The translations under genes were made by a program, and so were the position numbers. From Escherichia coli (GTDB taxonomy: Bacteria; Pseudomonadota; Gammaproteobacteria; Enterobacterales; Enterobacteriaceae), in the NCBI RefSeq assembly GCF_003334315.1, contig NZ_QOWR01000011.1: a DNA stretch of 64,000 nucleotides. The stretch is one strand, 5' to 3'. Positions 26,014 through 58,647 of the stretch are shown here, piece by piece. The notes beneath the pieces are model-generated. The model worked only from the letters and a program-made list of their open reading frames with translations, was not told where the DNA came from and ran no database searches. Numbering within the stretch: position 1 is the first letter of the stretch; the number at the start of each line of letters is the position of its first letter.

Positions 26014-27417
26014 GTGTCACTTTCGCTTTGGCAGCAGTGTCTTGCCCGATTGCAGGATGAGTTACCAGCCACAGAATTCAGTATGTGGATACGCCCATTG
26101 CAGGCGGAACTGAGCGATAACACGCTGGCCCTGTACGCGCCAAACCGTTTTGTCCTCGATTGGGTACGGGACAAGTACCTTAATAATATCAATGGACTGC
26201 TAACCAGTTTCTGCGGAGCGGATGCCCCACAGCTGCGTTTTGAAGTCGGCACCAAACCGGTGACGCAAACGCCACAAGCGGCAGTGACGAGCAACGTCGC
26301 GGCCCCTGCACAGGTGGCGCAAACGCAGCCGCAACGTGCTGCGCCTTCTACGCGCTCAGGTTGGGATAACGTCCCGGCCCCGGCAGAACCGACCTATCGT
26401 TCTAACGTAAACGTCAAACACACGTTTGATAACTTCGTTGAAGGTAAATCTAACCAACTGGCGCGCGCGGCGGCTCGCCAGGTGGCGGATAACCCTGGCG
26501 GTGCCTATAACCCGTTGTTCCTTTATGGCGGCACGGGTCTGGGTAAAACTCACCTGCTGCATGCGGTGGGTAACGGCATTATGGCGCGCAAGCCGAATGC
26601 CAAAGTGGTTTATATGCACTCCGAGCGCTTTGTTCAGGACATGGTTAAAGCCCTGCAAAACAACGCGATCGAAGAGTTTAAACGCTACTACCGTTCCGTA
26701 GATGCACTGCTGATCGACGATATTCAGTTTTTTGCTAATAAAGAACGATCTCAGGAAGAGTTTTTCCACACCTTCAACGCCCTGCTGGAAGGTAATCAAC
26801 AGATCATTCTCACCTCGGATCGCTATCCGAAAGAGATCAACGGCGTTGAGGATCGTTTGAAATCCCGCTTCGGTTGGGGACTGACTGTGGCGATCGAACC
26901 GCCAGAGCTGGAAACCCGTGTGGCGATCCTGATGAAAAAGGCCGACGAAAACGACATTCGTTTGCCGGGCGAAGTGGCGTTCTTTATCGCCAAGCGTCTA
27001 CGATCTAACGTACGTGAGCTGGAAGGGGCGCTGAACCGCGTCATTGCCAATGCCAACTTTACCGGACGGGCGATCACCATCGACTTCGTGCGTGAGGCGC
27101 TGCGCGACTTGCTGGCATTGCAGGAAAAACTGGTCACCATCGACAATATTCAGAAGACGGTGGCGGAGTACTACAAGATCAAAGTCGCGGATCTCCTTTC
27201 CAAGCGTCGATCCCGCTCGGTGGCGCGTCCGCGCCAGATGGCGATGGCGCTGGCGAAAGAGCTGACTAACCACAGTCTGCCGGAGATTGGCGATGCGTTT
27301 GGTGGCCGTGACCACACGACGGTGCTTCATGCCTGCCGTAAGATCGAGCAGTTGCGTGAAGAGAGCCACGATATCAAAGAAGATTTTTCAAATTTAATCA
27401 GAACATTGTCATCGTAA
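26014..27417 (+). CDS. dnaA: Chromosomal replication initiator DnaA
   Basis: 467 aa from GTG 26014 ([13 protein letters not shown]...); AAA+ Walker [12 protein letters not shown]; C-terminal DNA-binding domain. Confidence 0.95.
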
Positions 27418-32039: not shown

Positions 32040-32160
32040 GGCGCTAACCATGCGAGCGTGCCTGATGCGCTACGCTTATCAGGCCTACGAAAATCTTGCA
32101 ATGTATTGAATTTTCATGATTTTGTAGGCCGGATAAGGCGTTCACGCCGCATCCGGCAAG
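32040..32160. repeat. Tandem REP/BIME-like palindromic units downstream of gyrB
   Basis: gcctgatgcgctacgcttatcaggcctac and ggccggataaggcgttcacgccgcatccggc, REP consensus in opposite orientations. Confidence 0.65.
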
Positions 32161-42218: not shown

Positions 42219-42320
42219 TACATCGTAGCCGATGAGGACGCGCCTGATGGGTGTTCTGGCTACCTGACCTGTCCATTGTGGAAGGTCTTACATTCTCGCT
42301 GATTTCAGGAGCTATTGATT

Positions 42321-42734
42321 ATGCGTAACTTTGATTTATCCCCGCTTTACCGTTCTGCTATTGGATTTGACCGTTTGTTTAACCACTTAGAAAACAACCA
42401 GAGCCAGAGTAATGGCGGCTACCCTCCGTATAACGTTGAACTGGTAGACGAAAACCATTACCGCATTGCTATCGCTGTGGCTGGTTTTGCTGAGAGCGAA
42501 CTGGAAATTACCGCCCAGGATAATCTGCTGGTGGTGAAAGGTGCTCACGCCGACGAACAAAAAGAGCGCACCTATCTGTACCAGGGCATCGCTGAACGCA
42601 ACTTTGAACGCAAATTCCAGTTAGCTGAGAACATTCATGTTCGTGGGGCTAACCTGGTAAATGGTTTGCTGTATATCGATCTCGAACGCGTGATTCCGGA
42701 AGCGAAAAAACCGCGCCGTATCGAAATCAACTAA
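42321..42734 (+). CDS. ibpA: Small heat-shock protein IbpA (alpha-crystallin family)
   Basis: 137 aa [24 protein letters not shown]...; alpha-crystallin domain. Confidence 0.93.
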
Positions 42735-54636: not shown

Positions 54637-55821
54637 TTAAACGGGCTGCCCCTGATGCGACATCCGCGTCGCCAGCGGCAGCCAGCACAGCACGATCAAC
54701 AATCCCATTAAGGTCATCAACAACCCCAGGCTGCCCTGACCGGTTTGCGGCAACATCGCAGAGAGCGACGCCAGCACGCCGGAACCAATGTTTTGCAGAC
54801 CGCCGACCAGCGCGCCAGCCGTGCCCGCCAGGAAGGGGAACGGCTCCATCGCGCCGCTGGTCGCCAGCGGAAACAGCATCCCGGCACCGAAAAAGAACAG
54901 CGCGGCGGGAACGAGCAGCGTCCAGACATTCATCACGCCAAACCAGTCGGGGATCCACATCAGCAAGCCAGCCAGCAGGCAGCAGATAACCGACTGCCAC
55001 ATTAACGTGGAGAAGCGTTTATTGGGACGTCCGGCAAACCATGCGCCAAAAAACGCTGCCGGAATCGGCAGAATAAACAAAATACTGACCGTCATACTGC
55101 TCAGCCCTAACACCGCGCCCATCAGCACGCCGGAGCAGGCTTCAAAGGCGGCAATCCCGGCCAGACCGCCAATCAGCATCAGCAAATAACAGTTAAAACC
55201 GCTGTTACCGAAAAGCGTTTTATAACTGGTAAGCAGGCGCGTGCGCGGTGCATCGACCGGACGCGTTTCCGGCATCCAGCGGGCCATACTGAAGGTCACA
55301 CCAGCACAAAGAACCAACAAAAAGAGATAACAGGCGCGCCAGTTCCACATCGTATCCAGCAGACCGCCGATTAGCGGTGCGAGCAACGGACTGACGAGAA
55401 TCCCCATGTTTAACAGGCTGTTAGCATGGCGCAACTGTGTCCGTTCATATAAATCTCGCGGTAAAGTACGCGCCATTACGCCGCCAACGCCGGTGCCCAT
55501 CCCCTGCATCGCGCTGGCGGCAATCAACACCGTCAAACTGGAGGTCGTGACCGCGACCAGCGTTGCCAGCATAAAAATGGACATTCCGACGAGGATCACC
55601 GGTCGGCGGCCCACGCGGTCGGAAATCGGGCCATAAAACAGCTGTGAGACACCGTAAGTCAGCAGATAAGCGCCCATTACGCTCTGCACCGCCCCTTCAC
55701 GGACGTTGAGATCGCGCGCCATATCGGCAATAGCTGGAATATAAATGGTTTGCGCCATCTGACCGACGGCCACGAGTAATACCAACATCAATAACAAATT
55801 GACGTTTCTTTGCCTTTTCAT
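54637..55821 (-). CDS. emrD: MFS multidrug efflux pump EmrD
   Basis: 394 aa from MKRQRNVNLLLMLVLLVAVGQ...; 12-TM MFS. Confidence 0.9.
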   Translation of the reverse strand: MKRQRNVNLLLMLVLLVAVGQMAQTIYIPAIADMARDLNVREGAVQSVMGAYLLTYGVSQLFYGPISDRVGRRPVILVGMSIFMLATLVAVTTSSLTVLIAASAMQGMGTGVGGVMARTLPRDLYERTQLRHANSLLNMGILVSPLLAPLIGGLLDTMWNWRACYLFLLVLCAGVTFSMARWMPETRPVDAPRTRLLTSYKTLFGNSGFNCYLLMLIGGLAGIAAFEACSGVLMGAVLGLSSMTVSILFILPIPAAFFGAWFAGRPNKRFSTLMWQSVICCLLAGLLMWIPDWFGVMNVWTLLVPAALFFFGAGMLFPLATSGAMEPFPFLAGTAGALVGGLQNIGSGVLASLSAMLPQTGQGSLGLLMTLMGLLIVLCWLPLATRMSHQGQPV

Positions 55822-55995
55822 TATCACGGATGCTTTTATAAAAATAATTAGAATAAGTCACTACGCATTCCCATAAATGCGGGAGAGGAATCTATCACAT
55901 TGATGAATGTTAGCCAGATATACGCCAGGAATGGGGAATTGTTTAGCGGCAGAATATGTAAACAAAAGCGGCAATAAATGTTGCCGGGAGAGATG

Positions 55996-56033
55996 GTAGG
56001 GCGGATAAGATGCGTCAGCATCGCATCCGACAC
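55996..56033. repeat. REP-like palindromic unit
   Basis: gtagggcggataagatgcgtcagcatcgcatccgacacc matches the REP consensus. Confidence 0.6.
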
Positions 56034-56052
56034 CAACCCGCACGCTAAATAT

Positions 56053-56083
56053 AAAAGGGGAGCGGTTTCCCGCTCCCCTTTGG
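56053..56083 (-). terminator. Rho-independent terminator of tisAB
   Basis: Minus strand: aaaggggagcgggaaaccgctcccctttt followed by atattt; immediately 3' of tisB. Confidence 0.7.
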
Positions 56084-56100
56084 TGCGACTTGAATCTGAA

Positions 56101-56190
56101 TTACTTCAGGTATTTCAGAACAGCATCAAGCAGTTGCAGTGCTGCAACAATGAGTTTGAGGATAAGAATGGCGATATCCACCAGGTTCAT
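56101..56190 (-). CDS. tisB: Type I toxin TisB (29-aa membrane peptide, SOS-induced)
   Basis: Minus-strand ORF translates exactly to MNLVDIAILILKLIVAALQLLDAVLKYLK*; SD caggag 7 nt upstream; not in the ORF track (too short). Confidence 0.92.
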   Translation of the reverse strand: MNLVDIAILILKLIVAALQLLDAVLKYLK

Positions 56191-56300
56191 ACGCGTCTCC
56201 TGTGGTTCAGGAGCACTGCCAGCTGACGTACCTTTCCGCTGCCTGTTGCCAGCTGTTGTGCACGCGGTATCTCAAGGAGAAACGTTGTGCTTGTTGACAT
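56187..56300 (-). other. tisA: tisA upstream ORF of the tisAB transcript (37 codons)
   Basis: Minus-strand ORF MSTSTTFLLEIPRAQQLATGSGKVRQLAVLLNHRRRV* whose stop overlaps the tisB ATG (ATGA); contains the IstR-complementary region. Confidence 0.55.
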
Positions 56301-56424
56301 AACACAGTGTGCTCACGCGGGGTTAAGGCGCTGACGGCACCACCCGTTTCAGCCAGGACTTAGTGCGCCGGGTAACGATGCGGCCCCCGCATAACACATT
56401 GCGTACAGTGATATTATAGAAGTT

Positions 56425-56444
56425 TACTGTATAAATAAACAGTA
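56425..56444. promoter_or_regulatory. LexA box (SOS box) controlling tisAB and the divergent istR-2 promoter
   Basis: TACTGTATAAATAAACAGTA: palindromic CTGT-N8-ACAG with AT-rich core, near-perfect match to the LexA consensus. Confidence 0.85.
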
Positions 56445-56550
56445 ATATTTGGACAAAACGCAAACTGTGATCGATACTCAACTATGCACTAAATACGTCA
56501 AAATTCGTGCCGAAATTGCGCGTTCTGCGCGGAACACGTATACTTTCAGT

Positions 56551-56625
56551 GTTGACATAATACAGTGTGCTTTGCGGTTACCAGCCGCAGGCGACTGACG
56601 AAACCTCGCTCCGGCGGGGTTTTTT
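56551..56625 (+). ncRNA. istR: IstR-1 antitoxin sRNA (about 75 nt); the longer SOS-induced IstR-2 would start upstream near the LexA box
   Basis: TATACT -10 at 56539-56544; 5' segment gttgacataatacagtgtgct complementary to tisAB mRNA (plus-strand 56293-56313); ends in GC hairpin plus U-run (56600-56625). Confidence 0.65.
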
Positions 56626-56754
56626 GTTATCTGCAATTCAGTACAAAACGTGATCAACCCCTCAATTTTCCCTTGCTGAAAAATTTTCCATTGTCTCCCC
56701 TGTAAAGCTGTGCTTGTATAAATATTGTTAAACACAAAACCAACAAGGTCCCCA

Positions 56755-56853
56755 ATGACTACTTCCATGCTCAACGCAAAACTACTACCAACTGCGCCAT
56801 CCGCCGCAGTGGTCGTCGTGCGTGTGGTGGTGGTCGTCGGCAATGCGCCGTAG
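56755..56853 (+). CDS. ivbL: ilvB operon leader peptide IvbL (32 aa)
   Basis: MTTSMLNAKLLPTAPSAAVVVVRVVVVVGNAP*: Val/Leu-rich run typical of attenuation leaders; below the ORF-track cutoff. Confidence 0.9.
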   Translation: MTTSMLNAKLLPTAPSAAVVVVRVVVVVGNAP

Positions 56854-56877
56854 GGACTGGAACAACACACGATTCCA

Positions 56878-56913
56878 AAACCCCGCCGGCGCAAACCGGG
56901 CGGGGTTTTTCGT
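56878..56913 (+). terminator. ilvB attenuator (rho-independent terminator)
   Basis: aaaaccccgccggcgcaaaccgggcggggtttttcgttt. Confidence 0.8.
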
Positions 56914-56958
56914 TTAAGCACCTCCCGGAAAGTCGGCCCAGAAGAAAAGGACTGGAGC

Positions 56959-58647
56959 ATGGCAAGTTCGGGCACAACATCGACGCGTAAGCGCTTTACC
57001 GGCGCAGAATTTATCGTTCATTTCCTGGAACAGCAGGGCATTAAGATTGTGACAGGCATTCCGGGCGGTTCTATCCTGCCTGTTTACGATGCCTTAAGCC
57101 AAAGCACGCAAATCCGCCATATTCTGGCCCGTCATGAACAGGGCGCGGGCTTTATCGCTCAGGGAATGGCGCGCACCGACGGTAAACCGGCGGTCTGTAT
57201 GGCCTGTAGCGGACCGGGTGCGACTAACCTGGTGACCGCCATTGCCGATGCGCGGCTGGACTCCATCCCGCTGATTTGCATCACTGGTCAGGTTCCCGCC
57301 TCGATGATCGGCACCGACGCCTTCCAGGAAGTGGACACCTACGGCATCTCTATCCCCATCACCAAACACAACTATCTGGTCAGACATATCGAAGAACTCC
57401 CGCAGGTCATGAGCGATGCCTTCCGCATTGCGCAATCAGGCCGCCCAGGCCCGGTGTGGATAGACATTCCTAAGGATGTGCAAACGGCAGTTTTTGAGAT
57501 TGAAACACAGCCCGCTATGGCAGAAAAAGCCGCCGCCCCCGCCTTTAGCGAAGAAAGCATTCGTGACGCAGCGGCGATGATTAACGCTGCCAAACGCCCG
57601 GTGCTTTATCTGGGCGGCGGTGTGATCAATGCGCCCGCACGGGTGCGTGAACTGGCGGAGAAAGCGCAACTGCCTACCACCATGACTTTAATGGCGCTGG
57701 GCATGTTGCCAAAAGCGCATCCGTTGTCGCTGGGTATGCTGGGGATGCACGGCGTGCGCAGCACCAACTATATTTTGCAGGAGGCGGATTTGTTGATAGT
57801 GCTCGGTGCGCGTTTTGATGACCGGGCGATTGGCAAAACCGAGCAGTTCTGTCCGAATGCCAAAATCATTCATGTCGATATCGACCGTGCAGAGCTGGGT
57901 AAAATCAAGCAGCCGCACGTGGCGATTCAGGCGGATGTTGATGACGTGCTGGCGCAGTTGATCCCGCTGGTGGAAGCGCAACCGCGTGCAGAGTGGCACC
58001 AGTTGGTAGCGGATTTGCAGCGTGAGTTTCCGTGTCCAATCCCGAAAGCGTGCGATCCGTTAAGCCATTACGGCCTGATCAACGCCGTTGCCGCCTGTGT
58101 CGATGACAATGCAATTATCACCACCGACGTTGGTCAGCATCAGATGTGGACCGCGCAAGCTTATCCGCTCAATCGCCCACGCCAGTGGCTGACCTCCGGT
58201 GGGCTGGGCACGATGGGTTTTGGCCTGCCTGCGGCGATTGGCGCTGCGCTGGCGAACCCGGATCGCAAAGTGTTGTGTTTCTCCGGCGACGGCAGCCTGA
58301 TGATGAATATTCAGGAGATGGCGACCGCCAGTGAAAATCAGCTGGATGTCAAAATCATTCTGATGAACAACGAAGCGCTGGGGCTGGTGCATCAGCAACA
58401 GAGTCTGTTCTACGAGCAAGGCGTTTTTGCCGCCACCTATCCGGGCAAAATCAACTTTATGCAGATTGCCGCCGGATTCGGCCTCGAAACCTGTGATTTG
58501 AATAACGAAGCCGATCCGCAGGCTTCATTGCAGGAAATCATCAATCGCCCTGGCCCGGCGCTGATCCATGTGCGCATTGATGCCGAAGAAAAAGTTTACC
58601 CGATGGTGCCGCCAGGTGCGGCGAATACTGAAATGGTGGGGGAATAA
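56959..58647 (+). CDS. ilvB: Acetolactate synthase I large subunit
   Basis: 562-aa ThDP-dependent enzyme ORF (GDGS...MNIQE ThDP-binding region). Confidence 0.93.
   Translation: MASSGTTSTRKRFTGAEFIVHFLEQQGIKIVTGIPGGSILPVYDALSQSTQIRHILARHEQGAGFIAQGMARTDGKPAVCMACSGPGATNLVTAIADARLDSIPLICITGQVPASMIGTDAFQEVDTYGISIPITKHNYLVRHIEELPQVMSDAFRIAQSGRPGPVWIDIPKDVQTAVFEIETQPAMAEKAAAPAFSEESIRDAAAMINAAKRPVLYLGGGVINAPARVRELAEKAQLPTTMTLMALGMLPKAHPLSLGMLGMHGVRSTNYILQEADLLIVLGARFDDRAIGKTEQFCPNAKIIHVDIDRAELGKIKQPHVAIQADVDDVLAQLIPLVEAQPRAEWHQLVADLQREFPCPIPKACDPLSHYGLINAVAACVDDNAIITTDVGQHQMWTAQAYPLNRPRQWLTSGGLGTMGFGLPAAIGAALANPDRKVLCFSGDGSLMMNIQEMATASENQLDVKIILMNNEALGLVHQQQSLFYEQGVFAATYPGKINFMQIAAGFGLETCDLNNEADPQASLQEIINRPGPALIHVRIDAEEKVYPMVPPGAANTEMVGE

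Follow-up and report, generated by a model that had tools for sequence, protein, structure and literature searches.

The window analysed here, a stretch of 64,000 nucleotides of Escherichia coli DNA, almost certainly carries the chromosomal type I toxin-antitoxin module tisB/istR-1 in its K-12 allele, located between emrD and ivbL-ilvBN. This module is well known from earlier, detailed work, and the copy described here adds nothing new to its biology. The evidence obtained in this study comprises sequence identity, family matches, cis-elements, antisense complementarity and conservation across genera. An earlier reading of the letters alone (the sequence-only reading) had proposed an SOS-controlled tisAB/istR type I locus at this site, and the proposal is supported by identity to K-12 and by tests of the peptide, the small RNA (sRNA) and the LexA box.

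Identity, setting and distribution of the locus

A megablast query spanning 56040-56640 was compared with 5,426 complete E. coli genomes, and 601 of its 601 bases are identical to K-12 MG1655 and to many other E. coli strains. The identity extends well beyond the module, as the 5601 bases fetched around the locus, including 2.5 kb on each flank, are 100% identical to K-12 MG1655, and the window is therefore K-12-type E. coli DNA. Gene order and orientation (emrD, ysdE, tisB, ivbL, ilvB, ilvN) are the same as in the K-12 RefSeq record, and the locus occupies the chromosomal site between emrD and ivbL-ilvBN that is expected of TisB/IstR-1. Compared with tisB/istR-1 of K-12 MG1655, sequence, neighbourhood and the Asn2 allele are all the same and no difference was found. 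A decayed or chance look-alike of the module has practically no probability, being ruled out by 100% identity to the experimentally studied K-12 locus and by the intactness of all its elements.

To describe these elements, the region 55700-57000 was read on both strands and every ORF of at least 20 codons was listed. The coordinates given by the sequence-only reading are all correct, and each element that it described is present where it was placed. Two of its statements need qualification. The locus had been called invisible to the ORF track, which holds for length-thresholded ORF lists but not for RefSeq/PGAP, since "tisB: type I toxin-antitoxin system toxin TisB" is annotated under the match; IstR and tisA are missing from the K-12 RefSeq feature table. 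In addition, the left limit had been set at 56053, and the transcription unit in fact runs a few bases further left, with its U-tract reaching about 56044-56048.

Megablast matched the query in 4,396 of the 5,426 complete E. coli genomes; the match covers at least 80% of the query in 4,151 genomes and less than 80% in a further 245, and 1,030 genomes (about 19%) have no match. This distribution is consistent with the published one, in which the E. coli locus is full in 82%, interrupted in 3% and absent in 15% (PMC11264685). The proportions without the locus, about 19% here and 15% in that study, indicate that tisB/istR is dispensable. All matches to the locus in E. coli are chromosomal, and a tblastn search of TisB against plasmids and phages found nothing.

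The surrounding DNA contains several other small features. Between emrD and tisB lies ysdE, a 24-aa small ORF (55903-55977, plus strand) that is annotated in the RefSeq K-12 record; it appears in the ORF list solely as a 25-aa ORF with a TTG start, and its comparison with NCBIfam gave no match. Between emrD and the tisB terminator there is also a REP-like palindromic element, GGCGGATAAGATGCGTCAGCATCGCATCCGAC, at about 55998-56035, where a single REP has been described (PMC2577331); this element probably accounts for the second megablast match seen in each genome. On the other side, the ivbL leader peptide MTTSMLNAKLLPTAPSAAVVVVRVVVVVGNAP is encoded at 56755-56853 on the plus strand (NF007579, 78.7 bits) and is followed by its attenuator hairpin at about 56880-56910, ahead of ilvB (56959-58647). 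A minus-strand Rfam match to "P6" at 56879-57064 was rejected as spurious, as its 22 bits fall short of the gathering score of 50 and it corresponds to the ivbL attenuator hairpin. Elsewhere in the window, three Rfam matches exceed their gathering scores: AsdA, the antisense RNA of dnaA mRNA (101.9 bits, 26524-26604, minus strand), the ES036/CssrF sRNA (44.8 bits, 32081-32123, minus strand) and a ROSE_2 RNA thermometer (100.4 bits, 42255-42327, plus strand).

Toxin gene, control region and antisense RNA

The features of the module are collected in the table below.

Table. Features of the tisB/istR-1 locus in window coordinates; the exact +1 and 3' ends of transcripts are inferred positions, not mapped ones.
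Feature	Position	Strand	Description
tisAB intrinsic terminator	56044-56081	-	12-bp stem 56054-56081, 4-nt loop, then U-tract TTTTATATTT
tisAB primary transcript	56048-56406	-	about 359 nt; start 56406 from the -10 position and the published length
tisB CDS	56101-56190	-	29 aa, MNLVDIAILILKLIVAALQLLDAVLKYLK; hydrophobic inner-membrane toxin; ORF list, NCBIfam, RefSeq
tisA ORF	56187-56300	-	37 codons in tisB 5' UTR; TGA overlaps tisB ATG
tisB Shine-Dalgarno AGGAGA	56196-56201	-	inside predicted hairpin; ribosome-binding site as in PMC11264685 Table 1
IstR-1 target / ribosome standby site in tisAB mRNA	56292-56313	-	about +94 to +115; direct repeat
tisAB promoter -10 TATAAT	56413-56418	-	PMC11264685 Table 1; TATA core invariant in 15 sequences
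LexA (SOS) box TACTGTATAAATAAACAGTA	56425-56444		2 mismatches to TACTGTATATATATACAGTA; also found as inverted repeat
IstR-2 promoter	56450-56478	+	TGGACA, 17-nt spacer, GATACT; same hexamers in PMC11264685 Table 1
IstR-2 long form	56485-56625	+	about 140 nt, contains all of IstR-1; 5' end approximate
IstR-1 promoter, constitutive	56516-56544	+	-35 TTGCGC 56516-56521, -10 TATACT 56539-56544; PMC11264685 Table 1
IstR-1 antitoxin sRNA	56551-56625	+	about 75 nt; single-stranded 5' antisense tail, internal hairpin, terminator hairpin
IstR terminator hairpin	56600-56623	+	then U-tract; consensus scan

The 29-aa TisB that had been read on the minus strand is present as an ORF and passes both NCBIfam equivalog cut-offs, matching NF011340 with 69.6 bits (cut-off 53) and TIGR04459 with 59.9 bits (cut-off 38), each over positions 1-29 of 29. 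The peptide is strongly hydrophobic (GRAVY 1.62), and its polar residues D5, K12, Q19, D22 and K26 fall on one helical face. A search for relatives of TisB in the PDB found none. The allele is of the K-12 type, with Asn at position 2, which is the minority allele, as Ser2 replaces Asn2 in 85% of E. coli loci (PMC11264685). A rho-independent terminator had also been noted after tisB, and the consensus scan places a 12-pair hairpin there, running on the minus strand from 56081 to 56054 and into the U-tract. This terminator forms the 3' end of the tisAB RNA of about 359 nt; a start at 56406, set by the -10 hexamer, and an end near 56048 agree with the published length of 359 nt (PMC2577331). Three forms of this RNA, +1, +42 and +106, have been described (PMC6690012), and the processed, active +42 form would begin near 56365 in the window.

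Besides encoding TisB, the tisAB RNA might act in trans as an antisense regulator of uxaA and dinD and thereby damp the SOS response, which we consider quite unlikely. The stretches reported to be antisense to uxaA (20 nt, 56362-56381, minus strand) and dinD (16 nt, 56121-56136, minus strand) are both present, and overexpression of tisAB led to uxaA mRNA cleavage and SOS inhibition (PMC2577331). However, those effects came from plasmid overexpression, under which the toxicity of TisB, with its loss of proton motive force and ATP, can itself slow the SOS response, and the 16-nt dinD stretch, being part of the tisB coding sequence, is constrained anyway.

The near-consensus LexA box that had been recognised at the tisAB promoter agrees with the consensus at 18 of 20 positions. 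It is the sole match with at most three mismatches in the 64-kb window, and 100 dinucleotide-preserving shuffles yielded no match, so that the number expected by chance is 0. Only 6 nt separate the box from the tisAB -10 hexamer downstream of it, and the box therefore overlaps the -35 region and spacer of this promoter, which thus carries an SOS box of the TACTG(TA)5CAGTA type; on its other side, the box ends 5 nt upstream of the IstR-2 -35. In K-12, LexA represses tisAB, and a PtisAB-gfp fusion is induced about 1000-fold by ciprofloxacin (PMC2826370). All MG1655 promoter hexamers and the ribosome-binding site listed in Table 1 of PMC11264685 are present at sensible spacing. These include the plus-strand promoter whose -10, TATACT, had been picked out from the sequence. 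In the consensus scan, the IstR-2 promoter is the only sigma-70-like match in the region.

The plus-strand sRNA of about 75 nt, which had been likened to IstR-1, indeed starts near 56551 and ends in a terminator hairpin. An Rfam scan, named in the sequence-only reading as a check for IstR, returned the istR family RF01400 at 56496-56625 (150.1 bits, gathering score 45, E = 2.9e-32). The match is full length (model positions 1-130 of 130) and lies on the plus strand, opposite to that of tisB. The 22-mer at the 5' end of IstR-1 (56550-56571) is the istR complement reported previously (PMC2577331), and it is identical at 21 of 22 positions to the target at 56292-56313, the two forming a direct repeat with one T/C difference. 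In the predicted duplex, 56551-56571 of IstR-1 and 56293-56313 of tisAB form 21 base pairs, one of them G-U, with an energy of -33.5 kcal/mol. RNAduplex applied to the full-length RNAs gave an over-extended, unrealistic duplex, and the 21-bp core alone is reported here. The target sits 103-123 nt upstream of the tisB ATG, and its placement at about +94 to +115 puts the published +106 cleavage inside the IstR-1 duplex.

Conservation across enterobacteria, tisA and IstR-2

For a test of conservation, a collection with one genome per species was scanned with a degenerate DNA pattern drawn from invariant positions of the Rfam istR consensus. The pattern was built on IstR alone, and the results for the peptide, the LexA box and the target are therefore independent of the anchor. 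The scan gave 14 loci, counted as 14 other enterobacterial species, which belong to Salmonella enterica subsp. arizonae and diarizonae, seven Citrobacter, Siccibacter, Franconibacter, Pseudenterobacter, two further Enterobacteriaceae and a divergent E. coli. All 14 score above the Rfam istR gathering score, at 67-145 bits.

Each element of the module recurs in these species. In all 12 loci with enough flanking sequence, the strand opposite to IstR-1 has a 29-aa TisB-like ORF, located upstream of IstR-1 by 316-358 nt, and all 12 retain the TisB core LKL(I/M)VAxxQLLDAVLK. All 14 species also have a CTG-N10-CAG box, at -115 to -126 relative to IstR-1. Relatives thus keep both the peptide and the LexA box, the two features whose lack of conservation the sequence-only reading had named as grounds for abandoning its proposal. 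Complementarity between IstR-1 and the 5' UTR is retained in every locus that reaches the target (13 of 13), and in six of these 13 the same A-to-G change is present on both antisense partners. The tisB terminator hairpin is retained in 12 other species, with compensatory changes. Furthermore, the promoter cores are invariant in 15 sequences, namely AATTGC and GTATA(C/G)TT for IstR-1, and GAC (-35) and ATACT (-10) for IstR-2, the latter across at least six genera, and every promoter hexamer of the locus is invariant or close to it. Conserved islands in the intergenic region are the LexA box, five promoter hexamers and, where the tisAB RNA has its 5' end, a short stretch rich in G+C.

A lineage-specific difference was seen at the start of IstR-2. 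Both Escherichia sequences have an 11-nt insertion just after the IstR-2 -10 (about 56479-56489, plus strand) relative to Citrobacter, Salmonella and most others. Because of this insertion, the LexA box in Escherichia stands at -126 from the IstR-1 +1 instead of about -115, and the 5' end of IstR-2 differs.

The element that does not follow this pattern is tisA. The sequence-only reading had listed a 37-codon tisA ORF preceding tisB, and the ORF is present, but its status as a gene does not stand. The start position reads ACG rather than ATG in 8 of 13 species loci, and the frame is shifted or shortened in several, E. coli E69 having 27 codons, S. diarizonae 31 and Citrobacter 18056 just 6. 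Comparison of tisA with the NCBIfam families gave no match, and tisA has been reported to be untranslated (PMC2826370, PMC11264685). Judged from these sequences, tisA is not a conserved gene but an ORF in form only, lost between genera. Within E. coli, in contrast, the 37-aa ORF is retained in more than 99% of tis/istR loci (PMC11264685). The tisA ATG falls within the IstR-1 target, and constraint at the RNA level would be the simplest explanation of this retention, one that is favoured by the loss of the ORF between genera.

It is highly improbable that tisA is genuinely translated into a leader or co-toxin peptide and that the ATGA overlap couples its translation to that of tisB, as is the case for mok and hok. 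The overlap of the 37-codon ORF with the tisB ATG would suit such coupling, as would its near-universal retention in E. coli and the frame class (2 mod 3) that 8 of the 13 species loci share in their spacing from the tisA position to the tisB ATG. Against this stand the ACG starts, the cut or shifted frames and the absence of any family match, together with published statements that tisA is untranslated (PMC2826370) and that there is "no experimental evidence" for its translation (PMC11264685), and the position of the ATG inside the IstR-1 target accounts for the E. coli conservation at the RNA level. With ACG in 8 of 13 loci and a varying frame and length, tisA is not the conserved, translated upstream ORF of a mok/hok-type system.

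IstR-2 raises a different question. IstR-1 is constitutive and IstR-2 is LexA-controlled (PMC2826370), and it is unlikely that IstR-2, rather than IstR-1, is the relevant antitoxin or that it has a separate SOS-specific job. Several points speak for such a role: IstR-2 includes the entire IstR-1 sequence, its promoter cores are invariant in the 15 sequences, and deletion of the istR-2 promoter gave a low-persister phenotype (PMC2826370). However, IstR-2 has been reported not to repress or otherwise control tisB (PMC2826370, PMC11264685), and the predicted fold has its 5' extension base-paired to the beginning of the antisense region. Moreover, the IstR-2-specific sequence is not kept in Siccibacter, Franconibacter and UBA3516, and covariation is weak there. 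The covariation term for IstR is -1.02 kcal/mol, a weak value because the IstR-1 part is near-invariant and the IstR-2-specific hairpin is broken in distant genera.

There is a rather low chance that IstR-2 has a function of its own, which could be through a trans target or in timing the shut-off of tisB after SOS. The spacing between its promoter hexamers and the LexA box is fixed, and the hexamers do not vary across at least six enterobacterial genera. In the published work, deleting the istR-2 promoter reduced persisters to the extent seen in a tisAB knockout, and a site for a positive regulator was put forward (PMC2826370). In the alignment of 15 sequences, the known hexamers are the only conserved islands from the LexA box to IstR-1, and damage to the tisAB promoter context seems the more likely cause of the low-persister phenotype.

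Mechanism, related systems and significance

As the K-12 locus on which the experiments were done has this same sequence, the mechanism is taken from the literature (PMC6690012, PMC4147584, PMC2826370, PMC2577331), on which transcription, processing, LexA binding, toxicity and the persister phenotype would all rest for this copy. LexA bound to its box would repress the tisAB promoter and also the divergent IstR-2 promoter. Upon DNA damage, RecA-stimulated cleavage of LexA would allow the tisAB RNA of about 359 nt to be made from the minus strand. The primary +1 RNA should be translationally inert, and loss of 41 nt would yield the +42 form. In the +42 RNA, a single-stranded standby site loads 30S and S1, from which the structured tisB ribosome-binding site is reached (PMC6690012, PMC4147584); in the window this standby site would lie about 100 nt upstream of that ribosome-binding site. 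IstR-1 would be made constitutively from the plus strand and would pair with the standby site through its 5' 21 nt. On the standby site, IstR-1 blocks loading and leads to RNase III cleavage, which leaves the inert +106 form (PMC6690012, PMC4147584; PMC2577331 for cleavage and target).

When tisB mRNA exceeds IstR-1, the 29-aa amphipathic TisB helix is expected to enter the inner membrane. TisB causes depolarisation of the inner membrane and a fall in ATP, and it favours persisters that tolerate ciprofloxacin (PMC2826370); its insertion here would likewise lower proton motive force and ATP and may produce dormant, antibiotic-tolerant persisters. Thermodynamic folding of the +1, +42 and +106 RNAs gave a mean unpaired probability for the standby region of 0.39 in the +1 form and 0.48 in the +42 form; this rise is modest, and folding alone therefore does not reproduce the published on/off switch. 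The sequence holds nothing that contradicts the tisB/istR-1 explanation.

Other type I systems share parts of this design. For example, dinQ/agrB of E. coli, which is SOS-controlled, also encodes a LexA-repressed small inner-membrane toxin with a divergent sRNA acting on the 5' UTR, and its inert primary transcript is activated by 5' processing, at +44 as against +42 (PMC3567139, PMC5066626). However, its peptide and sRNAs are unrelated and it occupies another genome site, and the peptide in the window matches the TisB models, not DinQ. In shoB/ohsC and zorO/orzO, the sRNA is likewise divergent, and the site in the long toxin 5' UTR with which it pairs is distant from the ribosome-binding site (PMC4147584, PMC2887945), but these systems are without a LexA box or SOS control and belong to other peptide and RNA families. 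The hok/sok system of plasmid R1 resembles tisB/istR in its small membrane toxin, antisense RNA, RNase III-cleaved duplex and overlapping upstream ORF. It differs in that mok is translated and needed for hok translation, unlike tisA, which is reportedly untranslated and is not conserved, and in that Sok overlaps in cis, whereas IstR-1 is encoded by a divergent gene and targets a standby site in trans. It also differs in residence, hok/sok being carried on plasmid R1 while tblastn found no plasmid or phage copy of TisB.

For the present analysis, the value of the locus is that of a positive control, in which a 29-codon gene, an sRNA and a LexA box were correctly recovered from raw sequence and were each borne out by independent tests. 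The comparative work adds small increments, namely that the box, three promoters, antisense pair, peptide and terminator are retained in 14 other species, that tisA is not kept as an ORF between genera, and that Escherichia has an 11-nt insertion at the start of IstR-2. The locus itself is a textbook case of an SOS-induced type I toxin driving fluoroquinolone persistence, and of antisense control exerted through competition for a ribosome standby site.
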